Assembly (NCBI GenBank): GCA_050261575.1
Contig: JBLNDL010000025.1
Location: 79,115-117,855, forward strand
Source: Sphingomonadaceae bacterium
Lineage (GTDB): Bacteria; Chloroflexota; UBA6077
DNA: 38,741 bases
Direction: 5' to 3'
Shown: positions 6,019-10,587 of the stretch, piece after piece
Numbering within the stretch: the stretch's first letter is position 1
Layout of the letters: the number at the start of each line of letters is the position of its first letter
Translations under genes and position numbers: made by a program
The notes under the pieces: generated by a model
What the model was told of the DNA's origin: nothing
Seen by the model: the letters and a program-made list of their open reading frames with translations, nothing else
Database searches by the model: none

Positions 6019-6093
6019 GCGGCCGTGATGTAGTGGCAACATGCAACTTTCCCAAAGTTGATATCGTGGGTTCGAATCCCATCGGCCGCTCCA
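6019..6093 (+). tRNA. tRNA-Gly (anticodon CCC)
   Basis: Acceptor GCGGCCG/CGGCCGC-T-CCA, anticodon arm CAACT-TTCCCAA-AGTTG, T-arm GGTTCGAATCC. Confidence 0.96.
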
Positions 6094-6990: not shown

Positions 6991-7004
6991 AAGGAGAGAA
7001 GCTG

Positions 7005-7634
7005 TTGCTTGCCGCGCTGGAAGAGATCGTCATCCCGGCCATCGAGCAGCTATACGCCCAGGTCGGCTACCTGGGGGTGATGATCGCCATGGCCATCGAG
7101 AGCGCCTGCATCCCCCTGCCGAGCGAGATCATCATGCCCCTGGCCGGGTGGATGGTGTATCGAGGGGTCTTCGATCTGTGGCTGGTCGCCATCGCCGGGA
7201 CAATCGGCAACACCCTGGGCTCGTGTGTCGCCTATGCGGTTGGATCGTGGGGGGGTAGGCCTTTTCTGCAGAAGTACGGGCGCTACTTGCTGATCTCGGA
7301 GCACGACCTGGAGATCGCCGATCGATGGTTCAGCAAGTACGGCGAGAGGATAGTCTTCCTGTCCCGCCTCCTGCCGGTGGTGCGAACCTTCATCTCCTTT
7401 CCGGCGGGCGTATCGCGCATGCACTTCGGGAGGTTCGTCCTCTACTCCGCCCTGGGGGCCTTCCCCTGGGTGCTGGCGCTGGCCTACGCCGGGAAGCTCA
7501 TGGGTGACAACTGGGTGGCCGTGCGGCAGGTGCTGCACAACTTCGACTATCCCATCCTCGCGGTCCTGCTGGCGGGGGTGATCTACTACCTCTATCGCCA
7601 CCTGAAGCCGGTATTCGCGCAGAATCAGAAGTAG
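7005..7634 (+). CDS. DedA family membrane protein
   Basis: ESACIPLPSEII, FSKYG, RLLPVVRTFISFPAG; TTG start after AAGGAG. Confidence 0.93.
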   Translation: MLAALEEIVIPAIEQLYAQVGYLGVMIAMAIESACIPLPSEIIMPLAGWMVYRGVFDLWLVAIAGTIGNTLGSCVAYAVGSWGGRPFLQKYGRYLLISEHDLEIADRWFSKYGERIVFLSRLLPVVRTFISFPAGVSRMHFGRFVLYSALGAFPWVLALAYAGKLMGDNWVAVRQVLHNFDYPILAVLLAGVIYYLYRHLKPVFAQNQK

Positions 7635-7740
7635 GGCAAGCTCCACCCTGCGGGTGGCGCGCAAAGGCCGACCCCAGCCCGTTTGCCGCAGCATCGATGG
7701 GCTGGGGTCGATCCTCGATCGCGCGATCCCGGCGGGACAG

Positions 7741-8238
7741 CTAGGCCGGTCTTCCTGTTCGCCTGTCCCAGCGCAGGTAGTAGGGATAACCCGGCTCAAA
7801 CTGATTGGCCGTTTTGAGGTAATCCTCCTCGTTCCCCTCGATCATCAGCTTGTGCATGAGGACAACGTCGGCCCCTGGGATCCACTCCACCGGTTGGACA
7901 CACAGGCTCATCACGGCGCGGCCGTCCTCGTACACGCTAACCATGCCCCTCCCACGAGGCACCCGGTAGATCCGCCCCTGTCGAGAGGGGCTCCGGACCT
8001 CCAGGTAGCCACGGTGCTCTAGTTCGCGCACTTGCTCCGGGTCGAGTATCTCGTGCAGGAGGGCCTCTGCTCGCCGCTCGGCTTCCAGTTGCAGGTTGTT
8101 CCCCTTACCGGATACGCCTCTGCCCCGTGAGCCAAACAGCACCCAGAACACGATCCCGACGAACTGCGCGGCCAGAACCGCTATCCCGACCCAGGCCGCT
8201 AGCTCCCATTGCACGGTCGACCCGACTGTATCCATCAT
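7741..8238 (-). CDS. Hypothetical protein: N-terminal TM helix, soluble domain with one Cys
   Basis: ATGA overlap with upstream gene; hydrophobic WELAAWVGIAVLAAQFVGIVFWVLF; SLCVQPVEWIP. Confidence 0.8.
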   Translation of the reverse strand: MMDTVGSTVQWELAAWVGIAVLAAQFVGIVFWVLFGSRGRGVSGKGNNLQLEAERRAEALLHEILDPEQVRELEHRGYLEVRSPSRQGRIYRVPRGRGMVSVYEDGRAVMSLCVQPVEWIPGADVVLMHKLMIEGNEEDYLKTANQFEPGYPYYLRWDRRTGRPA

Positions 8239-8480
8239 CCACCGGCAACCCTAGGCACCATGACGATCTGCTCGGCGGTCTTGTCGAACCTCTCGAGCTT
8301 CTCGGCCGTCTTGCCGGGCTCCACCTTGAAGGCGGTGGCCCCCTTCGCCTTATGCTCCTCGAAGATCCGCTCGGCTTCCTTTATGGCCTCCAGGGCCTCA
8401 GGATCGCCCACTTCCGCCCGCTTCTCGTCCCACTCTACAGTGGTGTCGCCCTGATGGCTCAATATCCTCAGCTTGGACAT
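8235..8480 (-). CDS. Small protein with C-terminal di-glycine, putative ubiquitin-like beta-grasp
   Basis: 81 aa ending IVMVPRVAGG; beta-beta-alpha-beta-beta-beta pattern by eye. Confidence 0.75.
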   Translation of the reverse strand: MSKLRILSHQGDTTVEWDEKRAEVGDPEALEAIKEAERIFEEHKAKGATAFKVEPGKTAEKLERFDKTAEQIVMVPRVAGG

Positions 8481-8602
8481 TGTCGCTTCCGTCTCCTCTC
8501 GAAGTGTTACCTGGAGGATTACCTCTGCTCCAGAATGGGACCGCTTCCCCGGCCCCGTCGACCACGTGCCGGCCGCCGAGGCTTCGCGGGGTCCGCCTTT
8601 CG

Positions 8603-8619
8603 AGCACGAAACGTACCAA
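8603..8619 (-). promoter_or_regulatory. Sigma54-type promoter upstream of the GG-tail gene
   Basis: Minus strand TTGGTACGTTTCGTGCT (GG-N10-GC), about 120 nt before ATG 8480. Confidence 0.55.
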
Positions 8620-8816
8620 CCATCCCGTCCAACTTCTTCCCACCCTGCAGTCGGCCGGCCACCGGTCGACCTTCAGCCGCCCCAAGCTACCGCAAGACGG
8701 GTGCCCACCGGACGATCCCAGCATCTCCATCTCTTAATGATCGTGTCTGACAAGCACGAACGCGTCTCGTCCGCGACGCGCACGCCTGCGGACCTTCCGC
8801 AGGCCATTTACAACGC

Positions 8817-8847
8817 AGCAGGGGCGGGTTCAGAACCCGCCCCTGCT
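8817..8847. repeat. Perfect palindrome downstream of dhaL, REP-like or terminator
   Basis: AGCAGGGGCGGGTT-CAG-AACCCGCCCCTGCT. Confidence 0.7.
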
Positions 8848-8895
8848 TCTTCGCCGCTGTATCTGGGATCCCCGCCTCTCGCGCCTGTCGGCGCC

Positions 8896-9540
8896 TCAGG
8901 CGCCGGCCCGGTCCATGTAGTCTACGACCGCCTTAGACATCAGGTAGATGATCGTCGCCCCGGGGTCCTGGTGTCCGACCGACCTCTCGGCCAGCCAACG
9001 GGACCTGCCGAAAGCGGATTTCATGCCGATGGTTGCGATCATCCCCTTTTCGGCTGCCTCCATAGCCAGCCGGGCAGCCTCCCTCGGTCCCAGCCCTCGC
9101 TCGACGGCCCTTTCCAAAGCGAGGCGGGCAGGCATCAAAGCATCCAGGATGGTCTTGTTGCCGGGTTCCGCCTTGCCCCGCTCCTTGATACCCTGCTCCG
9201 CGGCCGCCACCATCCGGGCGACGTCGGGCAGGGTGAGTTCGCTCTGCCCGATCACGACCTTGCCCGCCCGCATGAACGCCGTGCCTAGAAGAGCGCCGAT
9301 GGTGGCGCCCGCGGCCTCCCCGAAGTCCGTGCCGGACTTCATCAACAACCGACCGATGTCGGCGGGGTGCTCAGCGAGGCCATCTCGGAGTGCCTTGAAG
9401 CCCCTCGACGTGGAAATACCGATGTCGCCGTCACCTATCGCCGAGTCCAACTCTCCCAGCATATCCTTGGCCGCTTCGAGTTCGAGCGCCACAGCTTCGA
9501 GGACTGCAACAGTCCGTTCGAGGCTCACTTTATCTCCCAT
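8896..9540 (-). CDS. dhaL: Dihydroxyacetone kinase-family subunit L
   Basis: LDSAIGDGDIG, GKAEPGNKTILDAL, GRSRWLAERSVGHQDPGA; start set to ATG 9540. Confidence 0.9.
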   Translation of the reverse strand: MGDKVSLERTVAVLEAVALELEAAKDMLGELDSAIGDGDIGISTSRGFKALRDGLAEHPADIGRLLMKSGTDFGEAAGATIGALLGTAFMRAGKVVIGQSELTLPDVARMVAAAEQGIKERGKAEPGNKTILDALMPARLALERAVERGLGPREAARLAMEAAEKGMIATIGMKSAFGRSRWLAERSVGHQDPGATIIYLMSKAVVDYMDRAGA

Positions 9541-9585
9541 CTCTCCACCCCTCCGCAACGTCGACTGCCAAGCGCGGACCCATTC

Positions 9586-10587
9586 TCACCTCTGTACGAA
9601 GAAGGGGGACTCCGCCGGCGCATCCAGCAGCCTCTTCATCTCATCGTCCAGCTTCAGGAGGGATAGCGAGCATCCAGCCATCTCGAGGGAGGTAGCGAAT
9701 TCGCCCACGTAGGGTCGATGGATGGAGATGTCTCGCTCGCGAAGCAGCTCCCACACCTTGCGATAGACCACGTATAGCTCTTCGAGAGGAGTCGCCCCGA
9801 GCCCGTTCACGAGCACCGCTACCTCGTCACCAGCCTCGAATGGCAAGTCCTCGACGACGGCGGTGGTGAGTGCGGTGGCGATCGCATCGGCGGATTCGAG
9901 CCTGCCCCTCCGCACGCCCGGCTCGCCGTGAATCCCCATCCCGATCTCCATCTCGTCCTCGCCGATGGAGAAGGTCGCCCGCCCCATCTCGGGAACGGTA
10001 CACGGGGATAGCGCAACCCCCATGCTTCTGGTGTTGGCTATGGCCTTCTCTGCTGCGGCCTTGACTGCCTGCAGGTCGGCCCCCTCGTCGGCCTTCGCCC
10101 CGGCTATCTTGTAGGCAAAGAAGATGCCTGCCACGCCCCGGCGCGTCTGCCACCGCTCGCGCGGCGCCGATGCCACGTCATCGCAAGCGGTCACGATCTC
10201 GACAGGGATACCCTCCATCGTGGCCATTTCCGCCGCGGTGCCAAAGTGCATGCAGTCACCCTGGTAGTTGCCGAACAGGTAAAGGACGCCCGCCCCGCCA
10301 TCGATCGCGCGCGTCACCGCCAACATCTGCCCTGTTGATGGGGAGGAGAAGACGTTTCCCACGGCGACGCCGTCGGCCAGCCCCTTCCCCACATAACCGA
10401 GAAAGACCGGCAGGTGCCCGGAGCCTCCGCCGGTGGCGATGGCCACCTTCCCCCGCACGGGCGAATCAGCCCGAACGATGGCTCGCCCATCCTTTCCCAC
10501 TGCCCTAAGCTGGGGCTGGTGCGCCCTGAGGATTCCGTCCAACACCTCGTCCACGAACATGGTCGGGTCGTTGATGATCTTCTTCAT
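9586..10587 (-). CDS. dhaK: Dihydroxyacetone kinase-family subunit K
   Basis: MKKIIN, GGGSGH, GNVFSSP, GMGIHGEPG, NGLGATPLEEL, TSLEMAG. Confidence 0.93.
   Translation of the reverse strand: MKKIINDPTMFVDEVLDGILRAHQPQLRAVGKDGRAIVRADSPVRGKVAIATGGGSGHLPVFLGYVGKGLADGVAVGNVFSSPSTGQMLAVTRAIDGGAGVLYLFGNYQGDCMHFGTAAEMATMEGIPVEIVTACDDVASAPRERWQTRRGVAGIFFAYKIAGAKADEGADLQAVKAAAEKAIANTRSMGVALSPCTVPEMGRATFSIGEDEMEIGMGIHGEPGVRRGRLESADAIATALTTAVVEDLPFEAGDEVAVLVNGLGATPLEELYVVYRKVWELLRERDISIHRPYVGEFATSLEMAGCSLSLLKLDDEMKRLLDAPAESPFFVQR

Follow-up and report, generated by a model that had tools for sequence, protein, structure and literature searches.

A conserved two-gene unit of Chloroflexota pairing a Gly-Gly-ended beta-grasp protein with a dedicated cysteine partner

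Two small overlapping genes, found in a 38,741-nucleotide stretch of DNA from a Chloroflexota bacterium of lineage UBA6077 (assembly GCA_050261575.1, deposited as Sphingomonadaceae bacterium; contig JBLNDL010000025.1, positions 79,115 to 117,855; hereafter the window), encode an 81-residue ubiquitin-like protein (Ubl) that ends in Gly-Gly (GG) and a 165-residue protein (the partner) with a predicted N-terminal membrane anchor and one Cys. Both genes are real and conserved, they are strictly paired, and they have strictly diversified together. As a functional unit the pair is obligate, and the features essential to it are the free GG end of Ubl and the Cys of the partner. Together they represent a GG-ended beta-grasp family with a dedicated Cys partner that lies outside any described family. 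As to what the pair does, we tentatively favour a modifier with a Cys acceptor: Ubl would be activated by a shared activating enzyme (E1), and the partner would serve at the membrane as a minimal acceptor resembling a conjugating enzyme (E2).

The known bacterial Ubl conjugation systems have their own E1 and are mostly found in sporadic defence islands, and the known GG-ended carriers serve the synthesis of cofactors and amino acids. The pair described here fits neither pattern. It is lineage-wide in several families of Chloroflexota, strongly conserved, and absent from Pfam, NCBIfam and PADLOC. The two open reading frames (ORFs) were first picked out in a sequence-only reading of the window, and the IVMVPRVAGG end of the shorter one, the ATGA overlap and the single Cys of the longer one are all as that reading had described them. 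In the following, we present the conservation of the pair, the features of each protein, their fused and phage-borne forms and the genes that might activate Ubl, and then weigh the possible functions.

Pairing and distribution of the two genes

A scan of species representatives, with one genome per species, returned 300 partner relatives, from which 80 loci were kept (one contig is counted twice, as L041 and L043). These loci come from Ktedonobacteria, Thermogemmatispora, Dictyobacter, Chloroflexia, Chlorohelix and Thermobaculum, and also from three bins, of which one carries the label Rubrobacter and two the label Armatimonadota. In 79 of the 80 loci, the gene immediately upstream of the partner, and on its strand, is that of Ubl, and the same 4-base overlap as in the window is present in most of these 79; at the single unpaired locus, the contig ends 94 bases before the partner. 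At the level of whole genomes, the partner was found in 41, Ubl in 40 and both in 39 of 201 sampled Chloroflexota genomes. When neighbours on the same contig within about 500 bp were counted by hand, 64 of the 70 Ubl matches had a partner beside them and 64 of the 75 partner matches had a Ubl. Without the unpublished genome G038, which holds two pairs, these figures become 40 and 39 of 200 genomes for partner and Ubl, 62 of 68 Ubl matches and 62 of 73 partner matches. The sequence-only reading had treated the two genes as one module, and their co-occurrence and adjacency bear it out.

The distribution of the pair tracks lineages: it is present in 11/11, 5/5 and 5/5 genomes of three families and in 0/13, 0/12 and 0/13 of three others. 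There are two to four paralogous pairs per genome. Cultured carriers include Thermogemmatispora, Ktedonosporobacter and Dictyobacter.

Three diverged subfamilies can be distinguished by the Ubl tails PR[VI][AV]GG, PIAGG and PRMVGG, each of which stands beside its own type of partner; one further Ubl form ends in PRIVGG. The partner subfamilies are only about 25-30% identical to one another, and the partners of the PIAGG and PRMVGG subfamilies, which were recovered as weak matches, are soluble proteins with no anchor. Within the 79 pairs, the mean pairwise identity is 0.74 for Ubl and 0.69 for the partner domain. The mirror-tree correlation between the two proteins is high (r = 0.90), a value that is expected from shared descent and is therefore not discriminating.

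The window's genome holds a second pair at C93:23259-23902 (L087 1109-1923), again with an ATGA overlap and the tail PRVAGG. It also holds a gene for a 135-residue partner at C70:51736-52110 (L088 1492-1899) that has no adjoining Ubl and sits between a family 9 glycosyltransferase and a MerR-type regulator.

The Gly-Gly-ended protein

Among proteins clustered at 90% identity, 742 relatives of Ubl and 417 relatives of the partner were found at E <= 1e-3. Almost all are unnamed proteins from Chloroflexota metagenome bins. For neither protein did Pfam or NCBIfam give a meaningful match at E <= 1, PADLOC matched neither, and searches of Protein Data Bank (PDB) sequences with both profiles yielded chance-level matches only.

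The GG end of Ubl is present in 120 of the 120 best relatives, whose tails are PRVAGG (70), PRIAGG (36), PRVVGG (12), PLVAGG (1) and AGGAGG (1), and in 98 of the 101 Ubl ORFs from all fetched loci, the exceptions being one that ends in GGV and two that are fused to GreA. Cys is absent from 119 of the 120 relatives. Rare tail variants are the duplicated tail GGAGG and the GGV form with one extra residue (L008 7738-7992 and L106 1006-1365).

An AlphaFold2 model of Ubl, built from a 54-sequence alignment, reached a mean predicted local distance difference test score (pLDDT) of 92.1. It has the order strand-strand-helix-strand-strand-strand (strands 2-6, 13-17, 49-53, 60-62 and 71-75; helix 27-45), and the last six residues, which form the tail, are disordered. 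The modelled topology is that of a beta-grasp protein and is predicted with confidence. In Foldseek and VIA-align comparisons, the matches of the model are nearly all beta-grasp domains, and all are weak: the best Foldseek E value is 0.092 and the best VIA-align Z scores are 5.0-5.2 (protein L). The matches include RA, PB1 and UBL domains, ubiquitin, SAMP1, BubA, and proteins L and G. TtuB aligns with Z 4.0 over 57 residues at a root-mean-square deviation (rmsd) of 2.8 A, and MoaD with Z 3.3. The beta-grasp fold expected from the sequence-only reading is thus recovered in the model, at pLDDT 92 and with weak structural matches. In the ESM Atlas, Ubl falls near a phage-rich unnamed cluster and a cluster automatically named 'putative ThiS', both of which are leads only.

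A resemblance to the sulfur carriers of related genomes is seen at the C-terminus. In sixteen canonical carriers taken from such genomes the tail is PAVAGG or PPVSGG, and the form xPxVAGG occurs both in Ubl and in local carriers of the ThiS/MoaD type. When the Ubl profile was aligned by hhalign with a local ThiS/MoaD-type profile, only the last 21 columns aligned (38% identity, pairwise E 3.6e-4, probability 37%). By sequence, the last strand and the tail of Ubl appear to resemble the local sulfur carriers, and the remainder does not. We infer that such a common tail would fit the use of the same kind of E1. A search of the genome with PF02597, the profile of these carriers, found seven loci, and neither of the two Ubl genes is among them.

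The cysteine partner

The partner consists of a variable N-terminal anchor and a highly conserved region at residues 51-147 (121 partner sequences). In these 121 sequences, C113, P121, D124, H129, E137, Y140, A144 and N145 are invariant, and an alignment of 48 sequences has 20 invariant columns in the partner domain. Cys113 is the sole Cys of the window's partner and lies within SLCVQPVEWIP. It is kept in all 26 sequences of a wide alignment, the phage copy included, in which only C113, P121, E137 and A144 remain invariant and position 124 stays acidic. Each of the 100 partner ORFs from all fetched loci has the motif C-x(4-9)-P-x(1-3)-[DE]. Both the GG end and the Cys are thus kept across deeply diverged subfamilies, as would be expected of the roles given to them in the sequence-only reading. 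The WxP motif proposed in the same reading did not survive: position 119 is Pro in 52, Trp in 34 and Cys in 15 of the 121 sequences, and only P121 is invariant.

The partner is modelled at pLDDT 83.8, with the blocks of the domain at 88-96. From the N-terminus, the model has an anchor helix, a long helix, a helix at 67-76, four strands (78-113) and helices at 122-135 and 137-143. The N-terminal helix, noted already from sequence, extends over residues 4-40 in the model and covers the hydrophobic stretch 11-36. A hydrophobic window, defined as 19 residues with a mean Kyte-Doolittle value of at least 1.6, is present at the N-terminus of 117 of 120 close relatives and 114 of 148 representatives. 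Judging by the Arg/Lys-rich stretch that follows the helix, the domain would probably face the cytoplasm.

Sequence comparisons place the partner domain in no named family. A profile search of 1.84 billion cluster representatives returned 6373 matches at E <= 1e-3, 1644 at E <= 1e-10 and 173 at E <= 1e-30; because 6373 representatives match its profile, the domain belongs to a large unnamed family. The ESM Atlas gave unnamed clusters only. The best PDB sequence match is PspE at E = 1, and rhodanese and TusA profiles do not match the partner. DUF6313 was considered and set aside: it matches 13 of the 48 partner members, below the cut-off and in the linker helix only.

Structural comparisons offer a lead. 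In an exhaustive VIA-align search with the partner model, the RWD domain 2daw ranked first (Z 4.9, rmsd 3.8, 96 residues aligned), the RWD domain of GCN2 also scored Z 4.9, and the E2 Ubc9 (4y1l_C) gave Z 4.8 at rmsd 3.1 over 83 residues. Lower-ranked matches comprise further RWD domains, FANCL, a UEV-containing complex and UBE2E1 (Z 3.4). On this basis the model may be called UBC/RWD-like only as a lead, since Z values this low can reflect a common arrangement.

Fusion proteins

Both proteins also occur fused to other domains. Seven matches to Ubl are longer forms, and in six of them (224-238 residues) Ubl is followed by PRVAGG and then directly by a complete GreA. The Ubl-GreA fusions are proteins P0392-P0397 and loci L120 1303-2091 and L121 251-967. 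The whole fused ORF is found on two metagenome contigs, and on the one that has flanks (L120) the adjoining genes do not include a partner.

Fusions of the partner domain involve pentapeptide repeats in three proteins, sigma-54 DNA-binding-like regions in three more, and a receiver domain and FtsZ in one each, every time with the added part standing where the membrane anchor would be. These proteins are P0320, P0327, P0353, P0355, P0359, P0366, P0368 and P0337, some of which could be gene-calling artefacts. A fusion of Ubl to the partner itself was never seen, despite the overlap of their genes.

Phage copies

Diverged copies of both proteins were found by tblastn in the same two of 50,697 phage records, and in both records the genes are adjacent. 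The records are those of an enrichment-culture virus of 197 kb and an uncultured phage of 595 kb (KX853510.1, L091 5809-7061; LR756511.1, loci L107 and L109). The phage partner keeps the Cys and has Lys at position 129. Each record also has one short ThiF gene about 60 kb from the pair (L110 4757-5380 in KX853510.1). The co-presence of ThiF in two of two phages is suggestive, in a tiny sample and among large phages, which often carry such genes. Foldseek against predicted viral structures returned what is likely the same phage protein (E 2.6e-7) and, as a second match, a 397-residue protein of Agrobacterium phage Atu_ph07 (E 0.02, template modelling score 0.50). No relatives turned up when viral contigs were scanned with the partner profile. 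Close to the Rctr197k pair are clustered regularly interspaced short palindromic repeat (CRISPR) arrays and transposase genes.

Candidate E1 and JAB genes

If Ubl is activated by an E1, the enzyme would be encoded away from the pair. The window's contig has no match to ThiF or JAB, and the matches in the genome are on C43, C14, C15 and C77. The two ThiF genes are on C43 and C14. On C43 (L001 1155-3477), a 364-residue ThiS-ThiF fusion is flanked by an enzyme dependent on pyridoxal phosphate (PLP) and a TusA-like protein of 81 residues; on C14, the second ThiF (342 residues) has a Prok-JAB protein and a further PLP enzyme in its vicinity. Either locus has the look of a sulfur-carrier amino-acid pathway. 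The sequence-only reading had noted that E1 and JAB genes are missing from the window, and this holds for the whole contig; ThiF-type E1s exist elsewhere in the genome. Its word 'minimal' is apt only in that E1 or JAB is never adjacent to the pair, since E1 genes are present at other loci.

ThiF is present in 41 of the 42 sampled genomes that hold either gene, and the exception is 81% complete. One single-contig genome with three pairs has a single ThiF match at E <= 1e-10. A search for Prok-E2_B (PF14461) gave no match in the 201 genomes, and control genomes also gave none, so the search is uninformative.

Proposed mechanism and alternatives

In the mechanism that we tentatively favour, Ubl would be a beta-grasp protein of the cytoplasm that reacts through its free C-terminal Gly-Gly. 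The partner would be tethered by one helix to the inner face of the membrane, its small domain presenting the invariant Cys. A ThiF/MoeB-type E1 encoded elsewhere would adenylate the GG carboxylate, and the activated Ubl would form a thioester with Cys113, the partner being either a minimal E2-like enzyme or itself the end acceptor. Ubl would thereby be held at the membrane or passed to targets there. Single shared E1s of this kind operate in Thermus (TtuC) and Haloferax (UbaA). In favour of the scheme are the strict pairing and co-diversification, the conserved GG end and Cys, the absence of Cys from nearly all Ubl relatives, the beta-grasp model of Ubl with its carrier-like last strand and tail, the topology of the partner with RWD and Ubc9 as top matches, and the ThiF genes available in trans in the genome, in 41 of 42 genomes and in both phage records. 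We infer in this scheme both chemical steps (adenylation and thioester formation), the topology at the membrane and whatever target may lie downstream. A bolder version, which we consider quite unlikely as a whole, would have a housekeeping sulfur-carrier E1 activate Ubl and the membrane-tethered mini-E2 attach it to lipids or membrane-proximal proteins in the manner of Atg8; the GreA fusions would be cleavable, and the mini-E2 would be retargeted by its fusions to DNA-binding, receiver or FtsZ parts.

A number of results weigh against activation of Ubl and its transfer to an E2-like partner. On the side of the partner, Foldseek found nothing in the PDB at E <= 0.001, no chain reached Z >= 5 in VIA-align, and a KTSC domain (Z 4.6) scores about as well as the RWD domains and Ubc9. 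The HPN motif that precedes the Cys is a feature of canonical E2s, and none is present in residues 78-113 of the window's partner or of the family consensus. A Pfam search with hmmscan found no UQ_con, Prok-E2, RWD or UEV match among 48 partner members at E <= 10. The E2 resemblance put forward from sequence thus holds for the topology and the weak RWD and Ubc9 matches, but it has lost its WxP motif and finds neither HPN nor a profile match. In addition, the family of the partner extends well beyond the paired set, and 11 of the 75 partner matches have no nearby Ubl, including the orphan in the window's genome. On the side of Ubl, PF02597 does not match the protein at E <= 1, nor any of 54 members at E <= 10. 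The phage Ubl, apparently a tandem form, ends in PG and not GG. The internal GG of the Ubl-GreA proteins means either that the fusions are cleaved or that a free GG is not always needed. They could be read both ways, like the eukaryotic ubiquitin fusions that are cleaved, or as proteins with Ubl as a fixed domain.

No E1, JAB or E3-like (RING-type) gene was found among the flanking ORFs searched with Pfam in any lineage examined, namely one representative of each of 11 recurrent neighbour clusters from the 80 main-subfamily (type-1) loci, 20 ORFs from 11 diverse type-1 loci, and 25 ORFs from 8 loci of the other subfamilies. ThiF is found in 181 of the 201 genomes; because it is nearly universal in the phylum, its presence is not discriminating and can only fail to refute the mechanism.

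The strongest alternative, which we regard as possible but rather doubtful, is a non-covalent adaptor and its receptor. Ubl would be a beta-grasp binding module, like YukD or a UBL domain, docked by a UEV/RWD-like receptor. Docking would take place at the membrane or, in the fused forms, on DNA or other scaffolds, and would set the location of a client; GG and Cys would then be conserved for binding or structure and not for chemistry. In its favour, Ubl occurs as an N-terminal domain of GreA with its GG internal, the fusion of the partner to sigma-54-like, receiver, pentapeptide and FtsZ parts is typical of an interaction module, RWD/UEV-type folds have no catalytic role and RWD domains head the matches of the partner, and an E1 is never adjacent. 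However, a structural role hardly explains why 98 of 101 Ubl ORFs stop exactly after GG, in a tail that is modelled as disordered and outside the fold, or why the Cys is among only four positions that are invariant across subfamilies about 25-30% identical.

A role as a sulfur carrier is unlikely. A shared E1 would thiocarboxylate Ubl, as happens with ThiS, MoaD, CysO and TtuB, and the partner Cys would relay or receive the sulfur for a thiolation close to the membrane. The free GG end has no extension to be removed, the last strand and tail are like those of local ThiS/MoaD-type proteins, TtuB is among the structural matches, and the E1s of the genome are located in sulfur-carrier operons. 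But the pair has no biosynthetic enzyme as a conserved neighbour, the genome already holds the seven canonical PF02597 matches, and the partner lacks a rhodanese or TusA match. Nor, to our knowledge, is any sulfur relay built on one dedicated Cys protein that co-diversifies with each carrier, in two to four paralogous pairs per genome.

It is very unlikely that the partner is a GG-specific cysteine peptidase that frees Ubl from Ubl-GreA or from conjugates made by others. Fusions with an internal GG do exist, and Cys113, Asp124 and His129 are each invariant in 121 of 121 sequences of the main subfamily. His129 was considered as the catalytic partner of the Cys and rejected, as Gln or Lys stands in its place in other subfamilies and in the phage copy, all of which retain the Cys and the pairing. 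A Cys-His dyad is disfavoured because His129 is lost while GG and Cys survive wherever the pair survives. Moreover, no known cysteine peptidase fold is among the matches listed, a stand-alone Ubl requires no processing, and the partner gene is not adjacent to Ubl-GreA in L120. An anti-phage defence or toxin-antitoxin pair is scarcely credible: translational coupling of two genes, several paralogous copies per genome and copies in two very large phages would suit it, but PADLOC has no match, the distribution goes by lineage, conservation is high in both proteins and the neighbours are housekeeping genes.

Comparison with known systems and significance

The pair shares features with several known systems and coincides with none of them. 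The carriers and modifiers of PF02597 (ThiS, MoaD, CysO, TtuB, SAMP and Urm1) are likewise about 80 residues long, with a beta-grasp fold and a free GG, and those of related genomes also share an end of the xPxVAGG type. Ubl differs in having no full-length match to their profile and a longer helix, and in standing never beside an E1 or a biosynthetic enzyme but always beside a dedicated Cys protein. A shared E1 gene at another locus serves the TtuB/TtuC and SAMP/UbaA systems, and the same may hold for Ubl.

The UBC (E2), RWD and UEV domains may resemble the modelled partner in their N-terminal helix, four-stranded meander and following helices, and in a conserved Cys after strand 4 with an acidic residue nearby. 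Unlike in the UBC fold, the partner Cys would lie at the very end of strand 4, only about 8 residues from the next helix, and the domain is small (about 100 residues), carries a predicted N-terminal membrane anchor, lacks HPN and matches only weakly (Z 4.8-4.9).

Operons such as Bil, Bub, Cap2/Cap3 of the cyclic oligonucleotide-based antiphage signalling system (CBASS) and the E1-E2-JAB type also place a small beta-grasp protein beside a Cys protein, and BubA is among the structural matches of Ubl. Such operons encode an E1 of their own, in most cases together with a JAB peptidase, and many of them serve in defence, whereas the pair has no adjacent E1 or JAB and no PADLOC match.

YukD of type VII secretion, which is not known to have a conserved GG end and has no sequence relation to Ubl, offers a precedent of another kind. 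As described in passages of a survey of prokaryotic Ubl systems (Iyer et al. 2006, PMC1779556), it is a bacterial beta-grasp protein that works with membrane proteins and is not conjugated. The same passages list no pair like the present one, and our literature search turned up no account of it.

Two eukaryotic systems may serve as analogies. Atg8-Atg3 lipidation and tail-anchored E2s (Ubc6) combine a GG-ended Ubl with a membrane-associated Cys enzyme, and the likeness, in tagging at a membrane, would be functional only. The eukaryotic fusions of ubiquitin to ribosomal proteins may be compared with Ubl-GreA in their order of Ubl, GG and a housekeeping protein of gene expression; in Ubl-GreA the fused protein is a transcript-cleavage factor, and cleavage after GG is putative.

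If the Cys accepts the GG tail, no known Ubl-E2 unit would be smaller, and bacteria would have their first membrane-anchored example; the pair would provide a tractable model of how E2-type chemistry could arise beside sulfur-carrier E1s. If the interaction is non-covalent, the two proteins would define a novel combination of beta-grasp protein and receptor, which gene fusions connect to GreA and to sigma-54-like proteins. Under either reading, two protein families would gain a testable function.

Organisation and surroundings of the gene pair

The features of the pair are listed in Table 1. On the reverse strand, the TGA stop of Ubl (8237-8235) overlaps the ATG start of the partner (8238-8236).

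Table 1. Coordinates, in the window, of the two genes and the features within or next to them
Feature	Position	Strand	Basis
Ubl gene (81 residues), stop codon included	8235-8480	(-)	ORF; tail IVMVPRVAGG
Partner gene (165 residues), stop codon included	7741-8238	(-)	ORF; predicted membrane anchor
ATGA overlap of Ubl stop and partner start (translational coupling)	8235-8238	(-)	Sequence
Gly80-Gly81 codons, Ubl terminus	8238-8243	(-)	GGT GGA, then TGA
Partner residues 11-36, N-terminal hydrophobic helix, predicted membrane anchor	8131-8208	(-)	AlphaFold2 and hydropathy
Partner residues 51-147, conserved soluble domain (helix, four strands, two helices)	7798-8088	(-)	Model and alignment
Cys113 codon, invariant Cys at end of strand 4	7900-7902	(-)	Alignments
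AGAGGAG, Shine-Dalgarno-like site 12 nucleotides before Ubl start	8493-8499	(-)	Read from sequence

No sigma-70-like promoter was found within 7500-9000, and Rfam scans of 7000-9500 and 7500-9000 gave no match around the pair. A single weak terminator-like site near the pair is within chance expectation.

The pair's neighbourhood is not conserved outside Ktedonobacteria. In the window, a convergent gene for a DedA/VTT membrane protein adjoins it, and DhaL and DhaK lie upstream (8896-10587, (-)); a family III CoA-transferase and an enoyl-CoA hydratase are further neighbours. DhaL is a Dak2-domain gene, and in Ktedonobacteria loci (e.g., L027 4414-7300) another one, FakA, lies upstream of the pair together with DegV. 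A link between Dak2 genes and the pair was not adopted: other lineages do not show it, and the arrangement may have arisen by chance.

A DUF3090 gene lies convergently just downstream of the pair in loci of the Ktedonobacteria type (57 of 80, L006-L085). It stands directly upstream, on the same strand, of the second-subfamily pair in two genomes that belong to a different family (L114 6337-6882; L117 7028-7489). In the window's genome, DUF3090 is on contig C36, unlinked to the pair.

A tRNA-Gly(CCC) gene is located at 6019-6093 (+) of the window. Several long ORFs that run over it on both strands are spurious read-throughs in a GC-rich region.

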